NCBI GenBank assembly: GCA_028687275.1
Contig: JAQUAK010000001.1
Span: 292,213-356,212, forward strand
Direction of reading: 5' to 3'
From: Patescibacteria group bacterium
GTDB lineage: Bacteria; Patescibacteriota; Patescibacteriia; Patescibacteriales; UBA12465
DNA: 64,000 nucleotides
The notes beneath the pieces were generated by a model, which was given only the letters and a program-made list of their open reading frames with translations, was not told the DNA's origin and did no database searches. The position numbers and the translations under genes were made by a program. Shown piece by piece: positions 4,481-24,095 of this stretch (positions are counted from its first letter, which is position 1; every line of letters starts with the position of its first letter).

Positions 4481-5197
4481 ATGATTGATTTTAGTACTGA
4501 AAAATTTCAAGGTCCGCTCGCTCTCCTTCTACAGATGATTGAGAAAGAAGAGATGGATATTACGGAAATTGCTTTGGCTTCCATTGCCGACCAATACGTA
4601 GCCTATGTTGAGCAAGCTGAAAACATTGATTTAGATGAAATTGCTGATTTTTTAGTGGTAGCTGCCCGTTTATTATATATTAAATCAAAAGCCTTATTAC
4701 CTTATTTAAGTAATGATGAGGATGAGGCTGAGATTGATGATTTAGAAAGACAGTTGCGGATGTATAAGGAGTTTGTGGATGCTAGTTTACAGATTTCCGC
4801 CTTGATTAATCGTGACCGTTTAATGTTTACTCCGGTTTTTAATAAGGATGGCCGTCAAGAGAAAAAAAGGGAAGTTTCCTTTGCCCCTCCCTTGAAACTA
4901 AAGATAGCTGATTTAGCAGAAAGCTGGCTCTTAATTTTGGCTCGTTTGAAGAAAAGAGAAGAGAAGTTGCCAGAGAGGAGATTAGAACCAAAGGTTAGTA
5001 TTGATGAGCGCATTGGTCATATCAGAGGTTTGTTAACAGAGCAATTGTCCTTAAGTTTTCAAAATTTTTTGAAAACTGCTACTTCCAGAGTGGAAGTTAT
5101 CGTTAATATTTTAGCCGTCTTGGAGTTAGCTAAACAGAGAGAATTAGTGTTTGAACAAGAAGAACTTTTTAGTGAAATAAAAGTTCTTAAAATATAA
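4481..5197 (+). CDS. scpA: Segregation and condensation protein A
   Basis: N-terminus FQGPLALLLQMIEKEEMDITEIALASIADQY is typical of ScpA. Followed directly by scpB. Confidence 0.85.
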   Translation: MIDFSTEKFQGPLALLLQMIEKEEMDITEIALASIADQYVAYVEQAENIDLDEIADFLVVAARLLYIKSKALLPYLSNDEDEAEIDDLERQLRMYKEFVDASLQISALINRDRLMFTPVFNKDGRQEKKREVSFAPPLKLKIADLAESWLLILARLKKREEKLPERRLEPKVSIDERIGHIRGLLTEQLSLSFQNFLKTATSRVEVIVNILAVLELAKQRELVFEQEELFSEIKVLKI

Positions 5198-6670: not shown

Positions 6671-7150
6671 ATGTCATTAATTAATAGTTTATATTTGCGG
6701 TTCGGCCGATTCTTGCAGAACAAACATGCTCGGATATTTAATGTCTGTGAAAAACGTAAATCAGTTGTTAAATTTTTTATCTCCGGCAGCTTGGCATCCG
6801 TGGTCGATTTATTAGCTTTATATCTTTTTCACGGCGTCTTCCGTTGGGAAATAGTTTTATCAACTTCACTGGCTTTCTTGTTTTCTTTTATGGTCAGTTT
6901 CAGTTTGCAAAAGTTTTGGACCTTCCGTGACTATAGTAATAAACGCCTACCCCATCAGTTAGTTTTATACATCGGCGCTGCTTTTATAAGCTTAAATCTT
7001 AATGCTTTAGCAATGCATGTACTAGTTAATAATTGGCAGATTTGGTATTTATTATCACAGATAGTGGTTAATTTGTTTCTGGGCGTTATTAATTTCTTTA
7101 CTTATAAATACATAGTTTTTCCAAAAAAATTAAATGAAGATAAAAATTAA
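6671..7150 (+). CDS. GtrA-family membrane protein
   Basis: Four-helix GtrA-like pattern. ATG at 6671 is preferred over the track start at 6605, which overlaps the upstream gene. Confidence 0.7.
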   Translation: MSLINSLYLRFGRFLQNKHARIFNVCEKRKSVVKFFISGSLASVVDLLALYLFHGVFRWEIVLSTSLAFLFSFMVSFSLQKFWTFRDYSNKRLPHQLVLYIGAAFISLNLNALAMHVLVNNWQIWYLLSQIVVNLFLGVINFFTYKYIVFPKKLNEDKN

Positions 7151-10893: not shown

Positions 10894-11211
10894 TCCCAGG
10901 TAGCGCAGCGGTAGCGCAGTTGGCTGTGAACACAAGTAATACGCAGCTTCCTCAAGTAATTGAGGTCGAAAACAAGGTGAACTGTCTGGAAGCCTAAAAT
11001 CGAAAGATCAAGGTAATCAGCAGCCAAGCCGTGTATATCTTTACACGGAAGGTTCAGAGACTATCCCGAAAGGGAGTAGGTCCGTCTGCAAAGACGGCCC
11101 GAAGCGCCTTGCGCCCATCAATTTTGGTGGGCGATGATATAGTCCACACCATTAAGAAATTAGTGGGTAAGTGTAACCAATTGGTCGTGGGTTCGAATCC
11201 CACCCTGGGAG
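10894..11211 (+). tRNA. tRNA-Asn(GUU) interrupted by an intron. Exons are 10894-10927 and 11174-11211. CCA is not encoded.
   Basis: Acceptor TCCCAGG/CCTGGGA; D arm GCGC-AGCGGTA-GCGC; anticodon stem GTTGG/CCAAT; T arm GTGGG-TTCGAAT-CCCAC; discriminator G. The spliced loop is CTGTTAA. Confidence 0.85.
10928..11173 (+). ncRNA. Group I intron (IC3-like) in the anticodon loop, no ORF
   Basis: P1: exon GCTGT with GCAGC (10943-10947), giving a U.G pair at the splice site. Terminal G at 11173. GNRA-capped hairpins at 10950-10965, 10999-11008, 11064-11075 and 11082-11097. CAGAGACTA core at 11055-11063. Confidence 0.75.
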
Positions 11212-11220
11212 CAAGCAAAA

Positions 11221-11246
11221 ATAGGCTAATATTAGCTTATTTTTTG
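11221..11246 (+). terminator. Rho-independent terminator after the tRNA
   Basis: ATAGGCTA/TAGCTTAT stem followed by a T run. Confidence 0.65.
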
Positions 11247-11265
11247 TTATCAAAGAGATAATTAT

Positions 11266-11291
11266 GTCACAATTTGTGACGCTATTGTGAC
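11266..11291. repeat. Perfect palindrome GTCACAATTTGTGAC followed by a GTGAC-N6-GTGAC direct repeat
   Basis: The 17-mer TGTGACGCTATTGTGAC recurs at 12101-12117 and 21697-21713. Confidence 0.7.
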
Positions 11292-11425
11292 GTAGAAACT
11301 CAATGTTTTGCGCTCCTCGGTTTTTTTCTGTATCCTACCCCGGAATTGACAATGGGAGTTGTGATGTGGTATATTTTCTTAATTACTTTAACAATTTAAA
11401 TATATTCGAACAAAGAGAGAGCCAT

Positions 11426-12004
11426 ATGAAAATAAAAAAAGGAAACAACCGCATCGTTTTTACTTTCCCCTTTTTAGGGATAGTAATAAAATTTCCGATC
11501 ATTAATCTTTTTAGAGTGTTTAAGACAGTTTTCACAGGGAGAGTGGAGGGAATAAGAAACAAAAAATTGTTCAAAAGATATTTTGAGTGGTCGGTACATG
11601 ATCCCAATTCTTTTAAATATGCATTATTCAGAGGGCTACTTGCTAATTGGAGTGAATTCCGATTTTATCGCAACACTAAAAACCCTTTTCTTACACCTAC
11701 TTATTTTTCCCTGCTTGGTTTTGTTAATATTCAGAAACATGGTCGCGAATGTCAATTACTTCAAGCTGACCTGTGGTGTCAACTTTTCGCACTAACTGGT
11801 GGTAAAGTTTTTGATGATGCTCATCATTTTTCCGAGCCACACAATTTTTGTCTTCAAAAAGATAAATTGCAGATTTTTGACTATGGAAGCTCTAGGACTC
11901 ATAAAGTAATTTTAGAGTATGGAGAAAAGATTGTTGAAAATTTTAATGCATCATATTGCTGGGAAGAAGAAAAAAAGAAAATTAAAGAACTAGAAAAAAT
12001 CTAG
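11426..12004 (+). CDS. Hypothetical protein with a possible protein-kinase-like fold
   Basis: ATG at 11426 preferred, preceded by an AGAGAGAG stretch. GIVIKFP resembles a VAIK motif; HHFSEPHNF...IFDYGS resembles catalytic-loop/DFG motifs. Weak. Confidence 0.4.
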   Translation: MKIKKGNNRIVFTFPFLGIVIKFPIINLFRVFKTVFTGRVEGIRNKKLFKRYFEWSVHDPNSFKYALFRGLLANWSEFRFYRNTKNPFLTPTYFSLLGFVNIQKHGRECQLLQADLWCQLFALTGGKVFDDAHHFSEPHNFCLQKDKLQIFDYGSSRTHKVILEYGEKIVENFNASYCWEEEKKKIKELEKI

Positions 12005-12020
12005 AAAAATTAAATCTAAA

Positions 12021-12050
12021 CGAGTGCATTCAACATACACTCGTTTTTTT
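12021..12050 (+). terminator. Rho-independent terminator
   Basis: CGAGTG...CACTCG stem followed by TTTTTTT. Confidence 0.7.
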
Positions 12051-12070
12051 ATTACCCATCTCCCACCACC

Positions 12071-12262
12071 CCTCCTTGTATTGCCAGCGAAACAAAAAGA
12101 TGTGACGCTATTGTGACTGAAAGGTGATAAAAGCTGGTAATTTGTGGATACGGATGACAATTTAGAAAGTGTAAAAAAATATCTAAAACTAGATAAATTT
12201 AGCTACTATTAAATAAAATTCTAAATCATCAATTTCTGCTTCGAATCCCACCCTGGGAGCAA
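12071..12262 (+). repeat. Direct repeat DR1 (~190 bp), ending in an exact 23-nt copy of the tRNA-Asn 3' end
   Basis: About 90% identical by eye to 21667-21855. 12240-12262 equals 11192-11214 (TTCGAATCCCACCCTGGGAGCAA). Confidence 0.85.
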
Positions 12263-12304
12263 ATTAAAATTTCTGCTTGTTTTAGCGGATTTTTTGTATT
12301 TATT

Positions 12305-12329
12305 GGTTCGAATCCTTGTTGGGTTGTGA
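12305..12329 (+). repeat. tRNA T-loop/acceptor-like fragment (a different acceptor sequence)
   Basis: GGTTCGAATCCTTGTTGGGTTGTGA with no matching 5' half. Confidence 0.5.
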
Positions 12330-12373
12330 ATTAATTTATGTTATAATTTGATTATCAAATTAATTATAATGAT

Positions 12374-12955
12374 ATGACAAAATTTATTTTACACGGAGGG
12401 GAGACTGGTATTCCCAATGAACATAACAAGGCTTTTTATCAAGAATGGGTTAAAGATTTTGGTGATAACAAAGTGCCAACAATCTTATTGGTTTATTTCT
12501 CAAGACCGGAAGAAATTTGGGATGATCTTGAAAAATCTGATAAGGAAAGATTTGCTAATTATACCAATGATAGAGTAGCTAATTTTATGGTTGCTAGTAA
12601 TGATATGGATAAATTTAAAGAACAAATAGAAGAAGCAGATGTTCTATATTTCAGAGGAGGGGAGACTCAAAAAATAGTAGATACTATGAAATCAATAAAG
12701 GATGAATTTTTATTGTTAATAGATGGAAAAACATATGCAGGCTCATCAGCTGGTGTAATGTTTTTATCTCACTATTCAAAAAGCAATGAAAGAGATTGGC
12801 AAAAATATTTGGGATTACTACCGATAGATTCGTTTGTCCATTATTCACGAGAAAAGCATAAAGGGATTATTGAGGAATTTAAAAAAGAACATCCTGAAAA
12901 TCATAATGAATGTATTTTGTTACCGGAGACAGAGTTTGTTATAAAAAATTATTAA
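12374..12955 (+). CDS. Peptidase S51 / class-I glutamine amidotransferase-like protein
   Basis: FRGGETQKIVD...YAGSSAGVMFLS nucleophile-elbow pattern of the peptidase E family. Confidence 0.55.
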   Translation: MTKFILHGGETGIPNEHNKAFYQEWVKDFGDNKVPTILLVYFSRPEEIWDDLEKSDKERFANYTNDRVANFMVASNDMDKFKEQIEEADVLYFRGGETQKIVDTMKSIKDEFLLLIDGKTYAGSSAGVMFLSHYSKSNERDWQKYLGLLPIDSFVHYSREKHKGIIEEFKKEHPENHNECILLPETEFVIKNY

Positions 12956-12960
12956 CTTTA

Positions 12961-12988
12961 GTTCGAACATCGTCCACGACCCCGAGCA
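12961..12988 (+). repeat. Degenerate T-loop/acceptor-like fragment
   Basis: GTTCGAACATCGTCCACGACCCCGAGCA, followed by TCACCCTGGGGG at 13021-13032. Confidence 0.4.
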
Positions 12989-13041
12989 TGTGATCTGTAC
13001 TCCCATAAATATATAGTGAGTCACCCTGGGGGTAAACTATT

Positions 13042-13082
13042 AAATCATCAAACAGGTTCTAACGTTTTCCAGCTCTCGGAGC
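13042..13082 (+). repeat. Diverged att-like repeat (R2a)
   Basis: AAATCATCAAACAGGTTCTAACGTTTTCCAGCTCTCGGAGC. About 70% identical to 13533-13573. Shares the AAATCATCAA lead-in and GGAGC end with DR1/DR2. Confidence 0.5.
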
Positions 13083-13141
13083 TAAGGCAAAAACCCCATT
13101 AATATTGGGGTTTTTGTTATACCCCGGATAGGACGCTCGAA

Positions 13142-13528
13142 ATGATTGAAGAATTTTGGTATAATAATTATATATTAAAAATTGTAAAGGGTATGAAAAT
13201 ATTACAGTTTACAACTATTTTTACAGCGTTTTTGTGGGTAGCGACAGGGCTGGTGACTGTTGGAAGTATATATCTTTCCAATATTGGTTTTGTTATTAAC
13301 TTGATTGTGGGGTTGTCATTTATCCTAATAGGTTTTTACCTTCACCTAAAAGAGAAGAATATATTTGGACTTTTAAAGATAGTCCCTGAAGATCAGAGCA
13401 GAAATCTGTATAAGAAAGTAATCGTGGGAGAAATTATTTTTATTGCAGCAGCTTTGTTTTTTGGACTTATGGCTTTTTCTGCAGTTTTATCAAGAGTATT
13501 TGGAGAAGGTTTTGCAGTGTTCGGTTAG
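13142..13528 (+). CDS. Small membrane protein, 3 predicted helices
   Basis: Hydrophobic ORF. Alternative start at 13193 (MKILQF). Confidence 0.5.
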   Translation: MIEEFWYNNYILKIVKGMKILQFTTIFTAFLWVATGLVTVGSIYLSNIGFVINLIVGLSFILIGFYLHLKEKNIFGLLKIVPEDQSRNLYKKVIVGEIIFIAAALFFGLMAFSAVLSRVFGEGFAVFG

Positions 13529-13532
13529 TAGG

Positions 13533-13573
13533 AATCAACAAAACAGTTTCTAACCTTCTCTAGTTCCTGGAGC
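13533..13573 (+). repeat. Diverged att-like repeat (R2b)
   Basis: AATCAACAAAACAGTTTCTAACCTTCTCTAGTTCCTGGAGC, followed by a terminator hairpin, as R2a is. Confidence 0.5.
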
Positions 13574-13705
13574 CTGTAATTTTTGGGTGTGCTTGAACGA
13601 CGTAATTCGTTTAAAATCAGCTAAAAAACAAAAGAACATGATCTAGGTCATGTTCTTTTGTTTTAGTCAAAAGTGAGAAAAGACAGTAAAATGGGGTGAT
13701 TGTTA

Positions 13706-13727
13706 GTTCGAATCCGAGGTCTAGTCA
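13706..13727 (+). repeat. tRNA T-loop/acceptor-like fragment
   Basis: GTTCGAATCCGAGGTCTAGTCA followed by TTTTTTAGCGGAA. The same TTTAGCGGA string follows DR1 at 12283-12291. Confidence 0.5.
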
Positions 13728-13828
13728 TTTTTTAGCGGAATTCTCTTTGACTATCGGTTAAATTAATGAGATTATAGTAATATAAAGTTTTTATAAAGAA
13801 AATATAAAATAATTATAAATTTACTTAT

Positions 13829-14176
13829 ATGTCAGATATAAATCAATTAACTGAGAGAATACAAAATTTTATAAAAGAACGTGATTGGAATCAATTCCAT
13901 AATCCTAAAGATTTAGCTCTTTCTTTAGTTTTAGAGTCCGCCGAAGTAATGGAACATTTCCAATGGAAGAATAACGAAGAAATTCAGGAATATATAAAAT
14001 CTCATAAAAATGAGATTGGCGAGGAGCTGTCGGATGTTTTATATTGGGTTTTACTAATGAGCCATGATTTAGATATTGATATAAAAAAAGCGTTTGAAGA
14101 TAAGATGCTTAAAAATGAAGCGAAGTATCCGATAGATAAAGCGAAGGGAAAACATGATAAATATACCAGTTATTAA
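13829..14176 (+). CDS. MazG-like nucleoside triphosphate pyrophosphohydrolase (dCTPase/YpjD-like all-alpha NTP-PPase)
   Basis: 115 aa. ERDWNQFHNPKDLALSLVLESAEVMEHFQWK and EELSDVLYWVL carry the EExxE/D-type motifs of the family. Confidence 0.8.
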   Translation: MSDINQLTERIQNFIKERDWNQFHNPKDLALSLVLESAEVMEHFQWKNNEEIQEYIKSHKNEIGEELSDVLYWVLLMSHDLDIDIKKAFEDKMLKNEAKYPIDKAKGKHDKYTSY

Positions 14177-14179
14177 TTT

Positions 14180-16033
14180 ATGTTAGTTTATCAAGCGACT
14201 AAGGAAAAATTTTCAAACGATATCTTAAGCAATAATATTGAAAATATTATTGCTGATATTATTAAAGTTAAATTAAATTTTTCTGTTCCAAAAAATCAAA
14301 TATTGGCATTTAAAAATTCTTTGATTTACATGGATAAAGTTATTGCTGATCCAGACATACCTAGCGATAGCGGAGTGGCTATTGAGTTCCAAATTCCACA
14401 AACATCCAAGCGGGTTGATTTTATTCTGACAGGACAGGATGATAAAAAAGATGACCAAGTAATAATAATTGAGCTTAAACAATGGGAAGAAGCTCAAATT
14501 ACAGAAAAAGATGGTGTCGTTATAACTCGCTTTGCCCATGGCACAGTAGAAGCTAGCCACCCTTCATATCAGGCGTGGTCTTATGCGGCCCTTATTAACG
14601 GTTTTAATGAGGCTGTTTATGATGGAAATATCACATTAAACCCTTGTGCTTATTTACATAACTACAAGGATAATGGAGTTATTACTGATCCTTTTTATAA
14701 AGAATATCTTGATAAGGCTCCGGCTTTTTTAAAAAATGACGCTTTAAAGTTGAGAGATTTTATTAAAACTTTTGTTAAATATGGAGATAAAACGAATATA
14801 ATGTATCGCATCGAGGCCGGAAAGATCAGGCCTTCAAAAGCACTGTCAGATAGTTTGTCTTCAATGCTAAAGGGTAATCAAGAATTCGTAATGATTGATG
14901 ACCAGAAGATAGTTTATGAAACCGCGCTTTCTTTGGCAAGAAAATCAAGCGAGAAAAATAAAAATGTCTTAATTGTTCAAGGTGGGCCGGGTACTGGAAA
15001 ATCTGTTGTGGCTATCAATTTATTAGTGCAAGCAACAAAAGCAGGTTTAGTGGCAAAATATGTGACAAAAAATTCAGCACCACGAGATGTTTACGCTAGT
15101 AAATTAACAGGAACTTTGAAAAGAACAGAATTTAGTAATTTATTTTCTGGTTCTGGAAGTTTTGTTAATTGCCCAGAAAATTCTTTTGATTTTTTGATTA
15201 TTGATGAAGCTCATAGACTTAATGAAAAATCAGGTATGTTTAAAAACTTAGGTGAGAATCAAGTAAAAGAAATTATTAAATCGTCAAAATGTTCAGTCTT
15301 TTTTATAGATGAAGATCAAAGGGTCACTTTAAATGATATTGGGAGTCAACAGGAAATAACTAAGTGGGCGGAAGATGCCGACTGTAGAGTTCATACTCTA
15401 GAATTAGCTTCTCAATTCAGGTGTAATGGATCAGACGGATATTTAGCCTGGCTTGATAATTCTTTACAAATACGAGAGACGGCTAATGTTAGATTTGAAA
15501 ATATTGATTATGATTTTCAAATTATTGATTCACCAAGTGAGTTGCGGGATATAATCTTTGAGAAAAATAAACTAAATAATAAAGCTAGGTTAGTGGCAGG
15601 ATACTGTTGGAATTGGGTGAGCAAGAAGAATAAAAATGATAACGATATAGTGATCCCTGAATTTGATTTTAAAATGCGTTGGAATTTAGCCACAGATGGA
15701 AATTTATGGATTATCAAGCCAGAATCCGTTAATGAAATCGGGTGTATACATACTTGTCAGGGTTTGGATTTAGATTATGTCGGCGTAGTTGTCGGTGATG
15801 ATTTAGTAGTGCGAGACGGAAGAGTTCTTGTTGATCCGAGTAAGCGTGCGGGTACAGATAAATCATTGAATGGTTTTAAAAAAATGTTGAAAGATGACCC
15901 AGAAGAAGCTAAGAAGCACGCGAGTCTTATTATAAGAAATACCTATCGAACTTTAATGACTCGAGGAATGAAGGGTTGCTATGTATATTTTACAGACAAT
16001 GAAACAAGAGAATATTTTAAATTGTTAATGTAA
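14180..16033 (+). CDS. PD-(D/E)xK nuclease-like N-domain fused to a DUF2075 (Schlafen-group-III-like SF1) P-loop ATPase
   Basis: VDFILTG...IIIELKQW (D...ExK). Walker A GGPGTGKSV and Walker B IIDEAHRL. C-terminal TCQGLDLDYVGVV...TRGMKGCYVY as in DUF2075. Confidence 0.8.
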   Translation: MLVYQATKEKFSNDILSNNIENIIADIIKVKLNFSVPKNQILAFKNSLIYMDKVIADPDIPSDSGVAIEFQIPQTSKRVDFILTGQDDKKDDQVIIIELKQWEEAQITEKDGVVITRFAHGTVEASHPSYQAWSYAALINGFNEAVYDGNITLNPCAYLHNYKDNGVITDPFYKEYLDKAPAFLKNDALKLRDFIKTFVKYGDKTNIMYRIEAGKIRPSKALSDSLSSMLKGNQEFVMIDDQKIVYETALSLARKSSEKNKNVLIVQGGPGTGKSVVAINLLVQATKAGLVAKYVTKNSAPRDVYASKLTGTLKRTEFSNLFSGSGSFVNCPENSFDFLIIDEAHRLNEKSGMFKNLGENQVKEIIKSSKCSVFFIDEDQRVTLNDIGSQQEITKWAEDADCRVHTLELASQFRCNGSDGYLAWLDNSLQIRETANVRFENIDYDFQIIDSPSELRDIIFEKNKLNNKARLVAGYCWNWVSKKNKNDNDIVIPEFDFKMRWNLATDGNLWIIKPESVNEIGCIHTCQGLDLDYVGVVVGDDLVVRDGRVLVDPSKRAGTDKSLNGFKKMLKDDPEEAKKHASLIIRNTYRTLMTRGMKGCYVYFTDNETREYFKLLM

Positions 16034-16038
16034 ATTTA

Positions 16039-16638
16039 ATGTGTATAACTAATCATGAACAAAGTGTTTCTGAAAAATTAAGTGATGAGTTAAATAGAGA
16101 TATGGATGAAATGCACAGACTTGCTAATAAGGCGAGTGATTTATCACTAAAAAATTATTCAACTTGGCGGGATTACTTACACAAGTATTATCTTGTGATG
16201 CTGGCTATTGCCGGGGGCCTAGGAATATATCAAGACGGTAATAGATCAAGTTTAATCTTAATTGTCATAGGCGTATTAATAGGTTTTTTAACAATAAATT
16301 TATATTTATATTGGGAAAGAAAGCATATAAGGTTTAGCTATGATATCGATATTACTAAACCTTATAAATTTTTTAATCATTCTGATATAAAGGAGAGCGA
16401 CCCACCTTTAGCATTAAGACTTAACTTAAGAGATGTTATTGAGGCTAACAGAAAATTGTTAAAAGAATCTAGTAATAAGGAAGAATCAAAAATTTTAAAA
16501 GGTAAGATAAATGCTGATAAAAGATGGCTCAGTATGATAAAGTATTGGAATATGTATGGTTTTGATCCTTTTTGGATCACTGGAGTAATAATCAGCTTGC
16601 TGTTAACTTTTTTGGGATTAATTTTAATTATTTCATAA
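16039..16638 (+). CDS. Membrane protein of unknown function, 3-4 helices
   Basis: Starts 5 nt after the ATPase stop codon. Two central helices and one C-terminal hydrophobic helix. Confidence 0.55.
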   Translation: MCITNHEQSVSEKLSDELNRDMDEMHRLANKASDLSLKNYSTWRDYLHKYYLVMLAIAGGLGIYQDGNRSSLILIVIGVLIGFLTINLYLYWERKHIRFSYDIDITKPYKFFNHSDIKESDPPLALRLNLRDVIEANRKLLKESSNKEESKILKGKINADKRWLSMIKYWNMYGFDPFWITGVIISLLLTFLGLILIIS

Positions 16639-16736
16639 ATAATAGCTAATATAATTGCCATACAAGTTGATAAACGTCAATATTAATGCTAGAATGGTAT
16701 TAAAAATAGCAATAAATAAAAAACCAATTTTATTAT

Positions 16737-17918
16737 ATGGGGGATTATTCATGGCTGATAATTATAGTTTTTATAGTTTCTTGCATAAGTTTTGTATCTT
16801 GGGCACGAGAGCAACATTTGAATTCTAAAAAATATTTAGAACTTAAACCTAGATTAGACAATTTGGATAAATCGGTAGCTGAATTTAACGCCCAGTCCAA
16901 AAAAGAACGAGAGGATATTGATAAAATGGTAAAACAAAAATCAATGGGCTTTCCGTGGTTAGCAGAAGCATTTGCTGATTACTATTCGTTGGCGGATTCC
17001 CAAAGAGAAGATTATTTAAAAAGAAAAAGTCATCCTGCATATACCTCTGCTGAGGTTGTCCGGGAAATAAAAAAAGAAAAAAAGGAATTACTTAGGTCAA
17101 ATAAAATAACTAATTACAAAATTAATTATTATGAAAAATTATTTCCGTGGCTTACAGAATTAATTGCGGAAAATGAAGACGAAGAAATGCCTGTGAAAAT
17201 GGGTAACGATAATGAGGACGATAACAATAACGAGGACAAAGTAAAGGACTTTTTAACACCAGAAGAATATAAAAAACTTCCGTCAGTAGTGAGAAATCAA
17301 AAAGCATTAGATAGATATTTATTAAATAGAAATAAGTCAAAATGGGCGATTGGTAGAGATTACGAAATGTACGTTGGATATTTATTTGAACAAAAAGGAT
17401 ATTCTATTGAATACAAGGGAATAATTGACGGATTTGAAGATTTAGGGAGAGATGTTATTGCTATTAAAGATGACGAGGTATGCATTATTCAATGTAAATA
17501 TTGGGCGCGATATAAAGAAATACACGAAAAACATATTTTCCAATTATTTGGCACAACTATGGAATATTGGATACAGAATTTCAATAATTCCAAAAAACCA
17601 AAAACTTTTGTCGAATTTGCCAAATTTTTAAATGAAGACAAGCTCAGGCCAATATTTTTTACATCAACGTCTTTGTCTGATAAATCAAAGGAAATGGCGA
17701 GAGCTCTTAGTATCGAGATTACAGAGAAGGTGCCGATTGGAGATTTTCCGAGAATTAAATGTAACATTTCTGGCAGGGATGGTGAAAAAATATATCACTT
17801 GCCATTCGATCAGCAATATGACAGAACAATTATAAAAAATAAAGGAGAATTTCATGCTTTTACTGTCAAAGAGGCTGAAGATTCGGGATTCAGAAGAGCT
17901 TTTAGACACAGATATTAA
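16737..17918 (+). CDS. Membrane-anchored Mrr-cat-type restriction endonuclease-domain protein
   Basis: N-terminal TM helix, coiled-coil, acidic linker. GRDYEMYVGYLFEQKGY...GRDVIAIKDDEVCIIQCKYW matches the Mrr catalytic core. C-terminal KIYHLP...EAEDSGFRRA motif. Confidence 0.7.
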   Translation: MGDYSWLIIIVFIVSCISFVSWAREQHLNSKKYLELKPRLDNLDKSVAEFNAQSKKEREDIDKMVKQKSMGFPWLAEAFADYYSLADSQREDYLKRKSHPAYTSAEVVREIKKEKKELLRSNKITNYKINYYEKLFPWLTELIAENEDEEMPVKMGNDNEDDNNNEDKVKDFLTPEEYKKLPSVVRNQKALDRYLLNRNKSKWAIGRDYEMYVGYLFEQKGYSIEYKGIIDGFEDLGRDVIAIKDDEVCIIQCKYWARYKEIHEKHIFQLFGTTMEYWIQNFNNSKKPKTFVEFAKFLNEDKLRPIFFTSTSLSDKSKEMARALSIEITEKVPIGDFPRIKCNISGRDGEKIYHLPFDQQYDRTIIKNKGEFHAFTVKEAEDSGFRRAFRHRY

Positions 17919-17964
17919 TTTAATTGTAAAATAATAAGTTTTATTGAATTTAAAAAATAAAAAA

Positions 17965-18495
17965 ATGAGGTTATTTAGAAATGTTAAATTGTCCTGGTTG
18001 TTTGTTATTATTTTATTAATACTTGTTATTGTTTTATTTTTACAAAAACAAGGTTATAAATATGAATTAATTTATAAATATCGAACTATTCCAGATATAG
18101 ACTTATCAAATACTTTACAAGAATTTCAAGACAGCAACATAGGTGAAATTAGAGGATTTGTTAAATTTGATAACGTTAGTAATCAGCCTAAAAATTTAAA
18201 ACAGTATTATATTATAAAACCTCTCAATAAGTTCGATGAAAATTTGTTGCAATATTATTCAGTCGAGGAAATAATAAAGATGGATTATCTTCCTCCTGCG
18301 AGTATTGGTTTTTCGGAAATAAAAGAAGTGAGTAAAACTTATAATATTGTGACTCTAGAAGATGAAAATGGTAATCAGTTTTTCATTAATAGGAATACAA
18401 AAGAAGTATCGATGAGAGATTCATCGGGAGATAATACTATATTGATTACCGATGAATGGGATTATTCTGATTTTATGACAGAATGGCTAAAATAA
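17965..18495 (+). CDS. Hypothetical single-pass membrane protein
   Basis: ATG at 17965 preferred over the TTG at 17944. N-terminal TM helix. No motif recognised. Confidence 0.5.
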   Translation: MRLFRNVKLSWLFVIILLILVIVLFLQKQGYKYELIYKYRTIPDIDLSNTLQEFQDSNIGEIRGFVKFDNVSNQPKNLKQYYIIKPLNKFDENLLQYYSVEEIIKMDYLPPASIGFSEIKEVSKTYNIVTLEDENGNQFFINRNTKEVSMRDSSGDNTILITDEWDYSDFMTEWLK

Positions 18496-18519
18496 TATAT
18501 ATATAATTTTAAATATCAT

Positions 18520-19290
18520 ATGTTTAAAAATGACAGATTAAAAAAATCGCCACTTAGAAAAGAGTCTTTACGTCGAGCAGGACAGTCTTTAGACGAAAAA
18601 ATTAATAAAGAGATTGATGATAAAATAATCTTTCCGTTTATAGTCGTCTTTGTTATTTGGGCTATCGTAATTATTTCGTGGTTGAGCATTTATTTTAAAA
18701 TCTCTTATAATCCACAGATTTTTACAATTGCGGCGATTCTAGTTACTATTTTTTTTGCTATTAAAATTCCAGCGGCTATTAAAAATATTAAAAACATGCG
18801 ACTAGGTAGAGATGGTGAGTGTATAGTAGCTGAATCCCTGGAGGAGCTTAGATCAGTAGGCTATAAAATTTATAATGATATAGTAGGAGAATCTTTCAAT
18901 ATTGATCATATAATAGTCGGTCCAGGTGGTGTATTTACTATAGAAACCAAAACATACAGAAAGCGAGTCGGCACTAATCCCCAGGTTAATTATGATGGTA
19001 ATGTTATAAAAATTGATGGAGCTGTATACCCAAAAGATGCTATTCAGCAAGCAAAGGGGCAAATGTATTGGCTAGAGGGATTTATAAAAGATAAGGTCAA
19101 GTTGACCATGAATGTTATTCCTGTGGTTATTTTTCCAGGATGGTTTATTACTGGCAATAATAGTAGTAGAGAAGTTTGGGTTTTAAATGAAAATTCTCTG
19201 TTAACAATATTAAAAAGTAGGGAGCAAATATTAAATAAAGAGCAAATAAATTTAATTGCAAGTCATATTGAGAGTTATAATAGAAGTTAG
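18520..19290 (+). CDS. Membrane-anchored NERD-domain nuclease-like protein
   Basis: Two N-terminal TM helices, then GRDGECIVAESL...NIDHIIVGPGGVFTIETKTY (NERD D/E...ExK core). Confidence 0.75.
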   Translation: MFKNDRLKKSPLRKESLRRAGQSLDEKINKEIDDKIIFPFIVVFVIWAIVIISWLSIYFKISYNPQIFTIAAILVTIFFAIKIPAAIKNIKNMRLGRDGECIVAESLEELRSVGYKIYNDIVGESFNIDHIIVGPGGVFTIETKTYRKRVGTNPQVNYDGNVIKIDGAVYPKDAIQQAKGQMYWLEGFIKDKVKLTMNVIPVVIFPGWFITGNNSSREVWVLNENSLLTILKSREQILNKEQINLIASHIESYNRS

Positions 19291-19311
19291 TTTAATATAT
19301 AAAAGTATATT

Positions 19312-20943
19312 ATGTTAGAAAAAATTTTTTTGAAAAATTATCGCAGTTTTGGTGGAGGTGGCGTGCATGTAGACGGACTGGGCAAGGTGAATATTTTTAT
19401 TGGAAAAAATAACTGTGGTAAAACTAATCTATTAAGATTCCTTGATTTTTTAGATAAAAATTTACCATTAGGAAATGCTAGTCCTAGTAAACATGCCTTA
19501 GATATAGATGATTATTTAAATTCGGACACAAAAAATCAAGTGGAGCTTGTAATTAATAATAACATTCCGGATACTTTAGCTGGAGATTTGGAGACTATGG
19601 GCATAGTTAATTTGGAACGGAAATTTATTTTTTCTGCAATGAATGGTGAACGCACTAGCATCTCAACAAATAATACATTTAATAAAGGCACAGTTATTGA
19701 AGAGGCTGTAAGAAAATATGTTACAAATACTCTGCACGGCCCAAGTGGCGGACCTTTTGAGGATAGGCTGAGAGATTTAGATATTGGAGTAATACAGAAT
19801 ATTTTTCCCAACATTCCCAGAGTAATTTTTTTAGAAGAATATAGAAAATTATCAAATGATCGTGGATTAAGGGCGCAGCTTAATAGTATTATTAATTATA
19901 ATCATCTTTCAAGAGCTAAAAATAAAAAGAAGAAAGAGGACTTACTTCAATTTATTTCAGATATTTTAGGTGAGAGCGCAGAAATAAATATCCCCTCATT
20001 AGAAGAAGAAATAGAATTAATAATGAATAATGATAAACATCTACCATTAACTCATTTTGGCACCGGCATACAAGACGTTCTTCTCCTAGGCATGTATTTG
20101 ACCGCAAATGATGACATGATTATTTGCATTGATGAGCCAGAGCTTCATCTCCATCCCGGTATTCAAAAATCTCTATTAAAATTTATTTCTGAGAAAACTA
20201 ATAATCAATATTTTATATCTACTCATTCAAATGCCTTTTTAGATTTTAAGATTAAAGACAAAAAGGTTTTTAGGGTTTGCTTAGATAGGCATGGTAATAC
20301 AAATATTGATTTATGTGAGAATATAAGTAGCACCCATAATATTTTGGATGATTTAGGTATTGGGGCAAGTGATATAATGCAGTCAAACGGGATTATTTGG
20401 GTGGAGGGTCCCAGCGACAGGGTTTACATAAAAAAGTGGCTAGAAATATTAGCCCCAGATTTGATAAATGATTTTCACTACTCTTTTCAATTTTATGGCG
20501 GAACAATATTAAGTCATTATGCGGTTAGTGAAAATTACTTTTCAGATTACATTAATTTATTAATGATAAATAGAAATTCATACATAGTTATGGACAGTGA
20601 CATGGATAGAGAGTTCATCACTGAAGATCTTAGAGAGACTAAACAAAGAGTAATTAATGAGTGCAACCAAAATGGTTTAGGGTACTGGGTTACAAGCGGA
20701 AGAGAAATAGAAAATTATTTGAGCAATAATTTATTAGAAAATTGTTTTAATGAACAAGTATCTCGTGATAAATTTTTAAAAATTGAAAGTTATTGTAGTC
20801 ATTTTAATTCCAAAAAAAAGATAGATTTTGCTAAAGTGGTTTCAAATGCTATGACAGTAGACGAATTCGATGATAATTATGATTTAAAGATAAAGATGGA
20901 TGAATTAATACAGAAAATTAAAGATTGGAATAATATAGAATAA
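19312..20943 (+). CDS. OLD-family ATPase-Toprim nuclease (AAA_15/21-type ABC ATPase plus Toprim/DUF4435-like domain)
   Basis: Walker A GKNNCGKTN. Walker B/D-loop ICIDEPELHLHP. Toprim glutamate in IIWVEGPSDRVY and DxD in VMDSDMD. Confidence 0.78.
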   Translation: MLEKIFLKNYRSFGGGGVHVDGLGKVNIFIGKNNCGKTNLLRFLDFLDKNLPLGNASPSKHALDIDDYLNSDTKNQVELVINNNIPDTLAGDLETMGIVNLERKFIFSAMNGERTSISTNNTFNKGTVIEEAVRKYVTNTLHGPSGGPFEDRLRDLDIGVIQNIFPNIPRVIFLEEYRKLSNDRGLRAQLNSIINYNHLSRAKNKKKKEDLLQFISDILGESAEINIPSLEEEIELIMNNDKHLPLTHFGTGIQDVLLLGMYLTANDDMIICIDEPELHLHPGIQKSLLKFISEKTNNQYFISTHSNAFLDFKIKDKKVFRVCLDRHGNTNIDLCENISSTHNILDDLGIGASDIMQSNGIIWVEGPSDRVYIKKWLEILAPDLINDFHYSFQFYGGTILSHYAVSENYFSDYINLLMINRNSYIVMDSDMDREFITEDLRETKQRVINECNQNGLGYWVTSGREIENYLSNNLLENCFNEQVSRDKFLKIESYCSHFNSKKKIDFAKVVSNAMTVDEFDDNYDLKIKMDELIQKIKDWNNIE

Positions 20944-21094
20944 ACAGAAGATGCAAAAGAATATCTTTTTATAACAGGATTTGATATAATATTGATGAAT
21001 ATTTATTAAATAAAGATAAAGTATTTTATCAGTTTTGTTTAATATATAATATATGCATTTGACTTTTTATGAAAAATGAAATATATTGATTATA

Positions 21095-21124
21095 CAAAAA
21101 AACTCCTGAATTTCATTTCAGGAG
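21095..21124 (-). terminator. Terminator oriented for a minus-strand transcript
   Basis: CTCCTGAA/TTCAGGAG 8-bp stem with an A run on the plus strand upstream, which reads as a U run on the minus strand. Confidence 0.55.
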
Positions 21125-21666
21125 TATAAAATTTACATAAATCAGCAACCATTGTTTTACGTTAAGTTAATTGTCTCTTTTGATGAAGAACCGTTCCAGC
21201 GGTTCTTTTCTTATATTCGGGGCATTTTTAAGTACCTCGTTTTTTTAGGGAATATATACTTTCCATTTTTTACTACAAAATTACACAGTAAATATTCTCG
21301 TCCGTCATTATCTGTTATATTAAAACATCTCTGGGTGGGCCTTTTCATGTTATTTTGGCTCACCCATAAAACTGTTACACACTTTTAAGGGTGAGCAGTT
21401 ATATGGTTGCTGGTTTGTATAAATTTTTAAATAACTTAACGCAATCATTCCTATTGGCAACACACTACATATTGTGGTTGATTAGATAAATCTATAGCAT
21501 TTCTTTACTTTTATTATCCAACTTTAGCACAATAGTTTTCAAGGGTCAAAAAATACTAATATTAAGTAAAATAATATGTATTTACAAATTTTAAAAATTG
21601 GGGTGTGGATAACTATTTATTAAAAATGATAGATATAAGCATTAATTAACAATCTTATTTATCACT

Positions 21667-21855
21667 CCTCTTTGTATTGCCAGAGAAACAAAAAACTGTG
21701 ACGCTATTGTGACTGAAAGGCGACAAAAACTGGTAATTTGTGGATACGGCTGACAACTTAGAAGGTGAAAAAAATATCTAAAAATAGATAAATTTAGCTA
21801 ATATTAAATAAAATTCTAAATCATCAATTTTTACTTCGAACCCCACTCTGGGAGC
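21667..21855 (+). repeat. Direct repeat DR2, ending in a 19/21 copy of the tRNA-Asn 3' end (candidate attR)
   Basis: Aligns with 12071-12260 along its whole length. 21835-21855 is TTCGAACCCCACTCTGGGAGC. Confidence 0.85.
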
Positions 21856-21870
21856 CCCTCCCATCCACCA

Positions 21871-21891
21871 AACGAGCCCCCCCTCGTTTTT
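21871..21891 (+). terminator. Terminator hairpin at the island's right flank; possibly the original tRNA terminator
   Basis: AACGAG-CCCCCC-CTCGTT followed by a T run. Confidence 0.55.
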
Positions 21892-21908
21892 CTCTATTCT
21901 TTACAGGT

Positions 21909-21920
21909 GAACGTTTGTTT
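21909..21920. promoter_or_regulatory. Candidate LexA operator (Cheo-box-like GAAC-N4-GTTT)
   Basis: GAACGTTTGTTT lies 30 nt upstream of the lexA ATG. One mismatch to GAAC-N4-GTTC. Confidence 0.5.
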
Positions 21921-21949
21921 ACTATACTGTCATTAGTAAACAGAAAAAT

Positions 21950-22516
21950 ATGATTGAAAAATATAAGCAACAAATTGTTAAGTTCTATCGCCAAAATAAA
22001 AGAATGCCTAACTTTTCTGAAGTAATGGTGCTCTTAGCTTTTAAGTCTAAGAATGCTGTTTTTAAATTAGTCAGTAAATTAGAAGAGGATAATTTCTTAA
22101 GTAAGGATGAGAAGGGCAAACTAATACCGAAGAATCTATACGGTGAGCTTAGAGTCTTAGGAGAAGTGGAGGCGGGCTTTCCTTCGGCCGCTGAAGAGGA
22201 ATTAGCCGATACGATGAGCATGGATGAATATCTGATTAAAAATAAAGAAGCCAGCTACCTACTTAAGGTTAGTGGCGACTCCATGAAGGACGCGGGTATA
22301 ATGAATGGTGATATGGTCTTGGTTGATCGTAGTGTAACGGCTGTGCCTGGTGATATTGTTATTGCCGAAGTTGATAAGCAGTGGACCATTAAATATTTAA
22401 GGAAAAAAGGGAAGGAGACCTACTTAGAACCGGCTAATAAGAAATTTGCCAATATTTACCCGACGGAGGAATTAAAGATTGCCGCGGTCGTTAAGGCAGT
22501 GATTAGAAAATACTAA
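21950..22516 (+). CDS. lexA: LexA-type repressor (HTH plus S24 peptidase)
   Basis: Ala-Gly cleavage site in VEAGFPS. Catalytic Ser in GDSMKDAGI. Lys in TIKYLRKKG. Confidence 0.85.
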   Translation: MIEKYKQQIVKFYRQNKRMPNFSEVMVLLAFKSKNAVFKLVSKLEEDNFLSKDEKGKLIPKNLYGELRVLGEVEAGFPSAAEEELADTMSMDEYLIKNKEASYLLKVSGDSMKDAGIMNGDMVLVDRSVTAVPGDIVIAEVDKQWTIKYLRKKGKETYLEPANKKFANIYPTEELKIAAVVKAVIRKY

Positions 22517-22517
22517 T

Positions 22518-23822
22518 ATGGCCTATACTTTGTCCTCATTTCCGCAAGCGATTTTACACGTGGACGCTGATTCTTTTTTTGCCTCCTGCGAGGTTGCTCG
22601 TCATCCCGAGTTAAAAGGCAAGCCAGTGGTAACCGGCTTAGAGCGGGGCATTGTCTCCTCTTTAACTTATGAAGCTAAGGCTCGTGGAGTAAGAAGAGCC
22701 ATGTCTTTTCGGGAGGTAAAGAAAATATGTCCAGATGTAGTTTTTTTACCTTCTGACTATGAAACCTATAGCTTATATTCTTTGCGGATGTTTAGCATTG
22801 TCCGGCGCTTTACGCCTGAGGTGGAAGAATATAGCATTGATGAGTGTTTCGCCGATTTAACGGGCATGCAGAGGCCAAATCAGCTCTCCTATGAGAAGAT
22901 GGCAGCGAAGATTAAAGCTGCCTTAGATAGCGAGTTAGGCTTTACCTTCTCTATCGGTTTAGCGCCCACGAAAGTACTAGCGAAAATTGGCTCTAAGTGG
23001 AAAAAGCCCTCTGGCTTAACTATAATTTCTAGCAATGAAATCAATAATTATCTCAGCCAGTTAAAAGTTGATGCCGTTTGGGGCATTGGACCACATACCA
23101 GTGCTTATTTAAATAAACTAGGAATTAATACCGCTTTGCAATTTGCCGAAAAAGATGAGGATTGGGTTAAAAATAGATTAACTAAACCCCATCAGGAAAT
23201 CTGGCAGGAGTTAAGAGGGCAAATGGTTTATAAAGTTGATGCCAATAAAAAGAGTAGCTATCAATCAATTAGCAAAACTAAAACTTTTACCCCACCCTCA
23301 AGGGAGAGGGAATATATATTCAGTCAGCTTTCTAAGAATACGGAAAATGCCTGTATTAAACTAAGACGCTATCAGTTAGCAACTAAGAAGGTTTTCTTTT
23401 TCCTAAAGACTCAAGATTTTATTTGTCAGGGCTATGAGTTTAAACTTGTTCGTCCGACTGATAATCCGGTGGAGATTATTAAAATGATTAATAAATACTT
23501 TGATTCCGTCTTAACCGTGGGGCATTTATTTAGGGCTAGTGGTATTATTTTACTTGATTTAGTGGCCAATTTTTCTCGACAAGCCGATTTGTTTAATGAA
23601 GTGGCAACTGCCGAAAAGATTTCTCGCATCTTTGCTAGCGTTGATGGTGTTTCCAAACGCTATGGCAAGCACACCCTGTTTCTGGGCTCTAGTTTATCAG
23701 CCATAACTGAGCCTCAGCACGCTGGGACTCGTCAAATAGCGGCTGAGCGTAAGCATGATTTATTTAAAGGTGAGACCATCAGAAAAAAATTAGCCATACC
23801 TTTTTTAGGGACAGTGGTTTAA
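22518..23822 (+). CDS. Y-family translesion DNA polymerase (UmuC/DinB-like)
   Basis: ILHVDADSFFASCEV and YSIDECFADLTG catalytic motifs. Starts 2 nt after the lexA stop. Confidence 0.88.
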   Translation: MAYTLSSFPQAILHVDADSFFASCEVARHPELKGKPVVTGLERGIVSSLTYEAKARGVRRAMSFREVKKICPDVVFLPSDYETYSLYSLRMFSIVRRFTPEVEEYSIDECFADLTGMQRPNQLSYEKMAAKIKAALDSELGFTFSIGLAPTKVLAKIGSKWKKPSGLTIISSNEINNYLSQLKVDAVWGIGPHTSAYLNKLGINTALQFAEKDEDWVKNRLTKPHQEIWQELRGQMVYKVDANKKSSYQSISKTKTFTPPSREREYIFSQLSKNTENACIKLRRYQLATKKVFFFLKTQDFICQGYEFKLVRPTDNPVEIIKMINKYFDSVLTVGHLFRASGIILLDLVANFSRQADLFNEVATAEKISRIFASVDGVSKRYGKHTLFLGSSLSAITEPQHAGTRQIAAERKHDLFKGETIRKKLAIPFLGTVV

Positions 23823-23834
23823 TCTCATATATTT

Positions 23835-24095
23835 ATGATCCAATATTTTCTCTATATAATTGAGTGCCAGGACGGAACGCTCTATACGGGTATAACGACT
23901 GATTTAGAGCGGCGAATAGATGAGCATAATCAGTCTCCGCTTGGCGCCCGCTATACACGGGGTCGAGGACCAGTTAAATTAGTTTACTCTAAAAAATTTA
24001 ATAACCGCTCTTTAGCCTCTAAAGAAGAATATCGCATCAAAAAGCTTTCTCGGGTAGGGAAGTTGGAGATGATAGGGGCGGAGGAGGGGATTTGA
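23835..24095 (+). CDS. GIY-YIG nuclease superfamily protein (UPF0213-like)
   Basis: YIIECQDGTLYTGITTDLERRIDEHN. Confidence 0.8.
   Translation: MIQYFLYIIECQDGTLYTGITTDLERRIDEHNQSPLGARYTRGRGPVKLVYSKKFNNRSLASKEEYRIKKLSRVGKLEMIGAEEGI

Follow-up and report, generated by a model that had tools for sequence, protein, structure and literature searches.

Probable right attachment junctions with a shared 17-nucleotide motif in an integrase-less island at an intron-split tRNA-Asn gene of a Patescibacteria genome

A 64,000-nucleotide stretch of the Patescibacteria group bacterium assembly GCA_028687275.1 (contig JAQUAK010000001.1, positions 292,213 to 356,212 of the forward strand; hereafter the window, numbered from its first nucleotide) carries a genomic island at an asparagine tRNA gene. 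Within the island two direct repeats of about 195 bp, DR1 (12067-12262) and DR2 (21663-21857), each contain a 17-nucleotide motif (17-mer), TGTGACGCTATTGTGAC, and each end in a copy of the tRNA 3' end. The tRNA exons and intron, the attachment (att) cores, the 17-mer copies, the repeats and the cargo genes are all given on the plus strand. We describe the island and a family of related loci, and argue that DR1 and DR2 are probably the right attachment junctions (attR) of successive insertions into the tRNA gene and that the 17-mer is the likely arm site of the responsible integrase.

The host gene is a tRNA-Asn(GUU) interrupted by a group I intron. Its 5' exon (10894-10927) and 3' exon (11174-11212), once joined, are recognised by ARAGORN as a 73-nucleotide tRNA-Asn(gtt), and the joined gene is collinear with the uninterrupted tRNA-Asn of two relatives (L081 and L029; L numbers denote loci of our collection) that keep the rpoD-tRNA-Asn synteny and have no intron. 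The 246-nucleotide intron (10928-11173) lies in the anticodon loop between anticodon nucleotides 35 and 36 and matches Rfam RF00028 at 10918-11166 (79.9 bits, E 1e-18), with U as the last exon base before the 5' splice site and G as the last intron base. Because the intron interrupts the gene, ARAGORN reports no tRNA in the unspliced window. The 3' exon holds the first copy of the att core (core A, 11192-11214), on the left attachment (attL) side of the island. A short-read assembly of SRR22315507 (L084, a Logan contig) begins at window position 11183, 9 nt upstream of core A; such a break would be expected from an assembly graph confused by the repeated core or by alternative junctions.

The core comprises the last 21-23 nt of the tRNA gene. 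Its sequence, TTCGAATCCCACCCTGGGAGC, is present at 11192 in the gene, at 12240 as a perfect copy (core B, 12240-12262) and at 21835 with two mismatches (core C, 21835-21855), where 0.00 copies are expected by chance, and it terminates both DR1 and DR2, as an earlier sequence-only reading of the window had proposed. That reading had judged the two copies about 90% identical by eye; global alignment gives 176 identical columns of 196 (89.8%) with a single 1-nt indel, and the longest exact runs measure 29, 24 and 20 nt. A repeat search of the window resolves the pair into segments at 12067-12178 and 21663-21774 (89%) and at 12173-12260 and 21768-21855 (93%), and a profile search finds no full copies of the unit in the window other than DR1 and DR2 (E 4e-56 and 1e-49). 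The pair had been placed at 12071-12262 and 21667-21855; it is present there, and its start lies from about 4 nt (12067/21663) to about 10-14 nt further upstream, the outermost starts (12057/21656) being those of the profile match. Since the exact runs reach 29 nt, DR1 and DR2 might recombine homologously, as the reading had suggested for a deletion of the block between them. The distal boundary of the island is marked by a directly repeated tRNA 3' end while the spliced tRNA-Asn stays intact, which is the arrangement that defines an attR. The repeats had been described as bracketing a block of defence genes. They do not form an attL/attR pair, and both have the character of attR-type right ends, one for each of two successive units.

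Immediately behind core A lies a left-end module (P' arm, 11215-11352) made up of the tRNA terminator, with a hairpin and T-run at about 11221-11245, an inverted half-site GTCACA (11266-11271), the first copy of the 17-mer (11275-11291) and a partial core-like sequence, ATCCTACCCCGG (11332-11343). It is followed at the left end of the cassette by a promoter-like site on the plus strand, TTGACA-18-TATATT with TG (11346-11375, 11 of 12 matches), and by an open reading frame (ORF) for 192 amino acids without a family match (11426-12004), the single cargo gene of unit 1. A terminator-like hairpin (12018-12046) separates this ORF from DR1, in which a P arm (12067-12239) with the second 17-mer copy (12101-12117) precedes core B. 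Unit 2 has a cargo region of 9.4 kb (12263-21662, 30.7% GC) with ten co-oriented ORFs, no integrase and no detectable P' arm at its left end. It closes with DR2, whose P arm holds the third 17-mer copy (21697-21713). The GC content is 0.33 in unit 1 and 0.31 in unit 2, compared with 0.36-0.38 in the flanks.

The three 17-mer positions are those given by the sequence-only reading, and a search of the window at up to 3 mismatches recovered no further copy (0.03 expected). The motif consists of two TGTGAC half-sites 11 bp, or one helical turn, apart (TGTGAC-N5-TGTGAC). In the P' arm it begins 83 nt beyond the start of the core, and in the P arms it precedes the core by 139 nt. The GTGAC 5-mer is itself enriched, at 48 occurrences in the window against 34.2 +/- 5.2 in shuffled sequences, with 7 of the 48 falling within the three 17-mer sites. 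A perfect palindrome had been reported at 11266-11280; the sequence there, GTCACAATTTGTGAC, is a 6-bp inverted repeat with a 3-nt spacer. The idea that the P arm carries five or six GTGAC-like sites in phase was considered and discarded, as the two half-sites of the 17-mer are the only ones that match with at most one mismatch.

The window encodes no recombinase for these sites. Searches by tblastn with the integrases of related loci gave no homologue in the 64 kb (best E 0.4), and no recombinase was found among the island ORFs, as had already been suspected; the place next to attL that is occupied by an integrase gene in relatives (L081, L008 and others) is empty of one here. Both units are therefore passengers resembling cis-mobilizable elements (CIMEs). 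A CIME is flanked by attL and attR and carries neither recombination nor transfer genes. Unit 1 (11215-12262) has this full composition, its P' arm being followed by a single cargo ORF, a P arm and a core while an integrase gene (int) is absent; unit 2 has it in part, owing to the missing P' arm.

Related loci were collected with an exact scan for the 17-mer in one genome per GTDB species, which returned 81 stretches. The hosts are mainly Patescibacteria and include delta-proteobacteria (megabase-scale contigs and a complete chromosome), a Syntrophobacteraceae metagenome-assembled genome, Acidobacteriota (contigs of 0.25-5 Mb) and Ignavibacteria, so that the motif occurs in at least four bacterial phyla; one IMG/VR contig (L002) carries it as well. 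The recurrent unit, read in the orientation of the motif, comprises a C-rich arm, TTGTATTGCCAGC..ACAAAAA, the 17-mer, GAAAGGTGATAAAA, an AT-rich stretch and a tRNA 3' fragment, with the tRNA that supplies the core varying among lineages. The 17-mer starts 138-141 nt before the TTCGA of the core in 26 of the 28 units that allowed this distance to be measured. A T-loop-like fragment lies at about 139 nt from 38% of the motif occurrences, compared with 2.4% of random positions in the same loci; the occurrences that have none are other real arrangements or chance matches. Four further copies with variant motifs (TGTGACGCTATTGTGCC, TGTGACGGAATTGTGAC, TGTGCCATTATTGTGAC) keep the half-sites. The left-end module is also conserved: a P' module of about 140 bp, composed of core, terminator, TCACAATT, 17-mer and partial core, stands behind cores in L018 (three times), L012 and L059, and a strong promoter-like sequence resembling TTGACAAAAGTATA directly follows many cores, including those of L018, L019, L038, L062 and L065. 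Cassettes seem to bring their own promoter, unlike the cassettes of integrons. We found no description of the 17-mer or of its integrase family in the literature.

Some members of the collection depart from this plan. High-GC units of an Acidobacteria type, in L002 (6260-6450), L010, L016 and L070, have the 17-mer about 140 nt upstream of a different tRNA 3' fragment, GGTTCAAATCCCGCCGGGGACGCCA; the L002 unit adjoins an unrelated gene for a large serine recombinase at that gene's 3' end. L002 had been considered a chance match, and this was dropped because it has the Acidobacteria-type P arm and a tRNA core. Two cyanobacterial loci (L003 at 4745-4790, L051 at 6980-7015) have tandem repeats containing TGTGA(C/T) around the 17-mer, with CTATTGTGACGCTATTGTGAT before it in L003, and two Pelagibacteraceae loci (L015, L046) share a different conserved context; none of these cyanobacterial and Pelagibacteraceae matches fits the P-arm architecture.

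Two direct copies of about 90% identity with no local recombinase could also have arisen by local segmental duplication, or be copies of a small non-autonomous transposon, with the tRNA link incidental. Such an origin is very improbable here. Both copies terminate precisely in the tRNA 3'-end core, every copy runs in the same direction as the tRNA, and in other phyla the same module ends in different tRNA cores at a fixed distance, which ties the unit to tRNA genes and sets it apart from a dispersed repeat. Terminal inverted repeats and target-site duplications are absent. Ends of Tn7-like elements, miniature inverted-repeat transposable elements or other transposons were rejected, since the 17-mers and repeats are all direct and the boundaries are repeats of the tRNA core.

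In relatives with intact elements the second copy of the motif marks the end of an integrase gene. L005, L008, L039 and L076 show the order P arm, core, second 17-mer and then int on the opposite strand; the second copy lies 251-266 nt downstream of the first, beyond the core, and is directly followed by the 3' end of a tyrosine integrase gene. Homologous integrases are encoded in 18 loci at 23-82% identity, and in about a dozen of these a 17-mer on the strand opposite to int lies no more than about 125 nt from the 3' end of the gene. The proteins are 370-390 residues long, contain Phage_integrase and SAM-like domains and match phrog_1. The 17-mer was recovered unchanged from elements with integrases that share only 23-48% identity. 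Rolling-circle Rep genes adjoin int in just two loci (L081, L078). Int-bearing relatives other than the L081 contig carry DUF2726, PIN_8, HATPase/DUF4325 and Uma2 genes.

The P' copy can also form part of the coding sequence. In L081 (int at 1585-2697) and L008 (4728-5897) it lies in the int reading frame and encodes (C/R)HNSVT, so that DNA site and coding sequence overlap. A search for integrase homologues returned 1590 at E <= 1e-30; an exact HNSVT tail is present in 45 of the best 120, the others ending in HKNVT, HNMAT and similar sequences. Some of these variant tails (HKNVT, for example) could encode both GTCACA half-sites, and the variant tails appear to retain GTCACA-N5-GTCACA. In an AlphaFold (AF2) model of the integrase (mean pLDDT 85.9) the tail from residue 347, including HNSVT, is predicted to be disordered. 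Since the tail is predicted to be disordered and its variants appear to keep the spaced half-sites, the constraint on this segment appears to act on the DNA.

The same model predicts three strands and a helix at the N-terminus (E2-6, E9-16, E19-24 and H30-45, residues 2-45, pLDDT about 90), the fold of the arm-binding (AB) domain that defines complex, element-borne tyrosine recombinases (PMC8138268). Foldseek comparisons gave alignments of 337-348 columns with full-length lambda Int and of only 271-281 columns with lambda Int(75-356). A sequence search of PDB chains with the integrase left the N-domain uncovered, and the fold comparison alone extended over it. The family enzyme is thus predicted to be a heterobivalent integrase with an N-terminal arm-binding domain, for which the 17-mer would therefore be the obvious candidate arm site. 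The proposal of arm-type sites beside an att core, made from the window alone, is supported by the fixed 138-141-nt spacing, the second copy at the int 3' end and the predicted arm-binding domain.

The 17-mer and the inverted GTGA(C/T) motifs that flank it might instead be sites for a recombination-directionality factor (RDF) or a host architectural protein. Half-sites do occur in inverted arrangement, as GTCACA-N3-TGTGAC at 11266-11280 and as degenerate inverted copies in the P arms, and dimeric helix-turn-helix proteins favour such inverted and direct arrangements. The motif, though, tracks one integrase clade across phyla while the neighbouring genes differ, and the predicted AB domain of the integrase needs a target. 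Direct repeats spaced by 11 bp in both arms are moreover the classical layout of arm sites, as in phage lambda. We consider binding by such a protein in place of the integrase N-domain rather improbable.

The P arm has a further feature. A hairpin that encloses the 17-mer is predicted at 12060-12133 on the minus (integrase-sense) strand of DR1, with a folding energy of -27.7 kcal/mol (z -4.8) that none of 200 shuffled sequences equals; its counterpart in DR2 is weakened (-14.6 kcal/mol, z -1.25). Across the family the stem has 9-13 bp and a loop of about 48 nt in which the 17-mer of the P arm lies. What is conserved in the repeat could be mainly a structured nucleic acid on this strand, with the 17-mer conserved in that role and not as a protein site, either as an RNA hairpin in the int 3' untranslated region of the excised form, comparable to lambda sib/tI, or as a hairpin of single-stranded DNA, for example a single-strand origin of rolling-circle replication. 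RNAalifold predicts the stem on the minus and not on the plus strand. Minus-strand pairing amounts to 89% of cells, compared with 57-68% with slid partners, and four pairs change on both sides. Many stem pairs are G.U, which on the other strand are A.C mismatches, and by eye the DR2 changes GGTGAT to GGCGAC keep G.U pairing on the minus strand. Cognate arms are more complementary to each other than non-cognate arms (0 of 5000 permutations). The covariation of the stem, 0.373 against 0.319 in shuffles and reached by 5 of 500, is within the range that the tool returns for structureless related sequences, which makes this control marginal.

Other observations fit a protein site. The 17-mer of the P' arm has no such hairpin, and nested inverted binding sites could mimic one: the inner helix can equally be read as an inverted half-site in degenerate form, which is perfect in L043 (AGCGTCACA-N5-TGTGACGCT), and GGTGAT/ATCACC forms part of the outer stem. 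The abundance of G.U pairs speaks for a folded strand, but nested inverted protein sites are a serious alternative. The stem is not followed by a U-run and so is not an intrinsic terminator, and neither it nor the rest of the P arm has a match in Rfam. Its position across the core from int presumably parallels that of lambda sib, and the minus-strand motif contains TAGCGT, which we take to be the CS-6 of ssoA origins; a function as a sib-like int retroregulator or as a single-strand origin is speculative. The two loci with a Rep gene beside int would suit an origin, but Rep is absent from most int-bearing relatives, and a rolling-circle single-strand origin has been reduced to a minor rival. 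Taken as a whole, a mainly structural role for the conserved repeat is unlikely.

A close relative shows what a fuller form of the locus may look like. The contig CAZIJG010000004.1 (L081, L018 and L065; 48001-72000), with an RpoD 89% identical to that of the window and a GC content of about 30-33%, has the order rpoD, tRNA-Asn, an element of about 5.7 kb with int and the rolling-circle Rep gene, and then at least seven cassettes. The cassettes are 1-3.9 kb long, have ORFs co-oriented with the tRNA, each end in the repeat and a core, and encode TspO, a pyrimidine-dimer glycosylase, DUF6653, CAAX protease and NERD proteins. The contig carries a Gammaproteobacteria label and shares the rpoD-tRNA-Asn synteny of the window; it probably belongs to a mis-assigned Patescibacteria genome. 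Judged by these relatives, the window locus represents the integrase-less state of a recurrent island-building site. Such cassette arrays in relatives suggest a hitherto undescribed route of gene capture in candidate-phyla bacteria.

A tentative and rather doubtful extension of this idea is that the unit of about 195 bp is the portable site of an integron-like gene-capture platform of Patescibacteria, with the P-arm hairpin as a functional switch acting as RNA or single-stranded DNA. If so, one arm-binding integrase beside tRNA-Asn would insert and excise promoter-bearing cassettes of one to a few genes that have no integrase of their own, every cassette would carry a full P arm and often the P' module of about 140 bp, and the hairpin would sequester the arm site instead of being a by-product of inverted binding sites.

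The explanation that we favour, that DR1 and DR2 are attR junctions of successive tRNA-Asn insertions, would work as follows. Related elements would integrate one after another at the 3' end of the intron-bearing tRNA-Asn(GUU), each new unit coming to lie nearest the tRNA and each attR consisting of a P arm of about 173 bp and a core of 21-23 bp copied from the tRNA 3' end. The recombinase would be a lambda-like heterobivalent tyrosine integrase of the family found in several phyla, whose N-terminal arm-binding domain most likely binds the 17-mer, placed in the P arm at a fixed distance of about 139 nt from the core and, in intact elements, in the P' arm inside the int 3' end. The window would then hold unit 1 (11215-12262), with 11215-11352 as the attL/P' module, and unit 2 (12263-21857), the defence-gene block that has probably lost its P' arm and whose core and hairpin have decayed. 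Because core B is perfect and the DR1 hairpin strong, whereas core C and the DR2 hairpin are decayed and the P' arm of unit 2 is lost, unit 2 would be the older insertion and unit 1 the later one. With integrase supplied in trans, recombination of attL with DR1 should release a circle of 1,048 bp, and of attL with DR2 a composite of 10.6 kb; unit 2 on its own would have no left arm.

Directly after core B (12263-12320) the sequence AATTTCTGCTT repeats the end of DR1 and is followed by a terminator-like hairpin (12272-12289) and by TTCGAATCCTTGTTGGGTTG, a second tRNA-like 3' fragment. This segment may be a decayed third repeat end with its core, or the relic of another att site, and we infer that two or three accreted units without an integrase are present in the window, the defence block being the older.

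Several points weigh against this explanation. All members of the family were gathered with the exact 17-mer, so the invariance of the motif is partly a matter of ascertainment. Apart from the half-sites of the 17-mer, the apparently phased TGTGAC-like motifs are weak; the hairpin on the integrase-sense strand is superfluous under a pure arm-site model; and an RDF or host factor could be the protein that binds the 17-mer. Neither an empty site nor an alternative junction was recovered by look-ups of exact proteins and a metagenome scan: RpoD gave no record, LexA, the 192-residue ORF product and the S51 peptidase gave only short Logan contigs identical to the window, and the right junction had 0 matches in the metagenome scan.

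Successive insertion with a shared arm site would account for the presence, in a reduced Patescibacteria genome, of a 9.4-kb defence block and a unit with one gene beside a tRNA gene, and predicts which junctions might still move if an integrase is supplied. A motif recovered unchanged from integrases of as little as 23-48% identity in at least four phyla would imply an unusually rigid recognition of the arm combined with a freely evolving specificity for the tRNA core, and integrases that share one arm site and use different tRNA cores would offer a natural series for the study, and perhaps the re-targeting, of heterobivalent integrases. The pattern TGTGAC-N5-TGTGAC with a tRNA 3' fragment about 139 nt further downstream is also a simple, searchable signature, which flags island boundaries even where the integrase has been lost and the tRNA is invisible to tRNA finders.

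Homologues of the unit 1 cargo ORF lie in ordinary chromosomal contexts without the repeat, and none was found in cassettes; as they sit outside cassettes, the unit 1 cassette shows no sign of spread. The ORFs of unit 2 include an S51 peptidase, a MazG-like protein, an SLFN-type helicase, Mrr and NERD proteins and an OLD/GajA-like ATPase. Between 14180 and 20943 the SLFN-type helicase, which has AbiO/Nhi-like matches, is accompanied by the Mrr-domain, NERD and OLD/GajA-like ATPase genes; no GajB partner for the ATPase was recognised among the unit 2 cargo. To the right of core C a C-rich run and a terminator (21870-21889) precede lexA (21950-22516), beyond which lie genes for a Y-family polymerase (22518-23822) and a GIY-YIG protein (23835-24095). 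This SOS-type cassette (21858-24095) adjoins the island boundary, and the GC content is 0.43 at 22-23 kb.

The proposed mechanism is already known from phage lambda; what is unusual is the conservation of the motif across phyla and the arrays of small cassettes that each keep a full site of about 195 bp. The 17-mer presumably resembles the lambda arm consensus, which we take to contain GTCAC. As in lambda attP and attR, a core lies between P and P' arms with short repeated sites, and the P' sites adjoin the int 3' end. In contrast to lambda, these elements target tRNA genes at their 3' ends, the 17-mer was recovered unchanged across integrases of only 23-48% identity and lies inside the int coding region, and the P arm has a fixed spacing of 138-141 nt and a hairpin favoured on one strand. 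Like lambda Int and other AB-domain recombinases (PMC8138268), the integrase is predicted to begin with three strands and a helix, and its fold aligns with that of full-length lambda Int. No Xis was identified in this family, for which no systematic search for Xis-like genes was made.

Tandem islands linked to tRNA or tmRNA genes are a close parallel for the accretion of units. In the ssrA islands of Dehalococcoides (PMC3146451), the tycheposons of Prochlorococcus (bioRxiv 10.1101/2020.12.28.424599) and the CIMEs accreted in streptococci, as proposed here, successive integrations displace older units from the tRNA, a partial copy of the tRNA 3' end closes each unit, some units have no integrase and may depend for movement on a neighbour or on an enzyme acting in trans, and the cargo often consists of defence or niche genes. 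The ssrA islands use a serine recombinase and have a conserved flank of only about 15 bp (PMC3146451), whereas each unit here keeps a conserved arm of about 175 bp. The present units also differ from tandem islands and CIMEs in being as small as about 1 kb, with one gene and a promoter of its own, and in their Patescibacteria hosts. The asn tDNA islands of Klebsiella (PMC4891358) similarly use tRNA-Asn 3' ends as integration hot spots and have direct repeats at their ends, but they are large, have unrelated P4-like integrases and lack the 17-mer and the P-arm module.

The cassette arrays of the relatives recall integrons in having an integrase beside a fixed insertion point, followed by small co-oriented cassettes of one to three genes, each closed by a conserved site for recombination that contains an imperfect inverted repeat. 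An integron was nevertheless rejected: NCBIfam integron-integrase models score the family enzymes at 61-85 bits against cut-offs of 265-435, and attC sites recombine as folded single strands at the hairpin base, whereas here some 120 nt separate the hairpin from the crossover core, which is the tRNA 3' end. The enzyme is of the phage type with a predicted AB domain and is not an IntI, and in contrast to attC the site of about 195 bp is conserved in sequence and its cassettes carry promoter-like sites.

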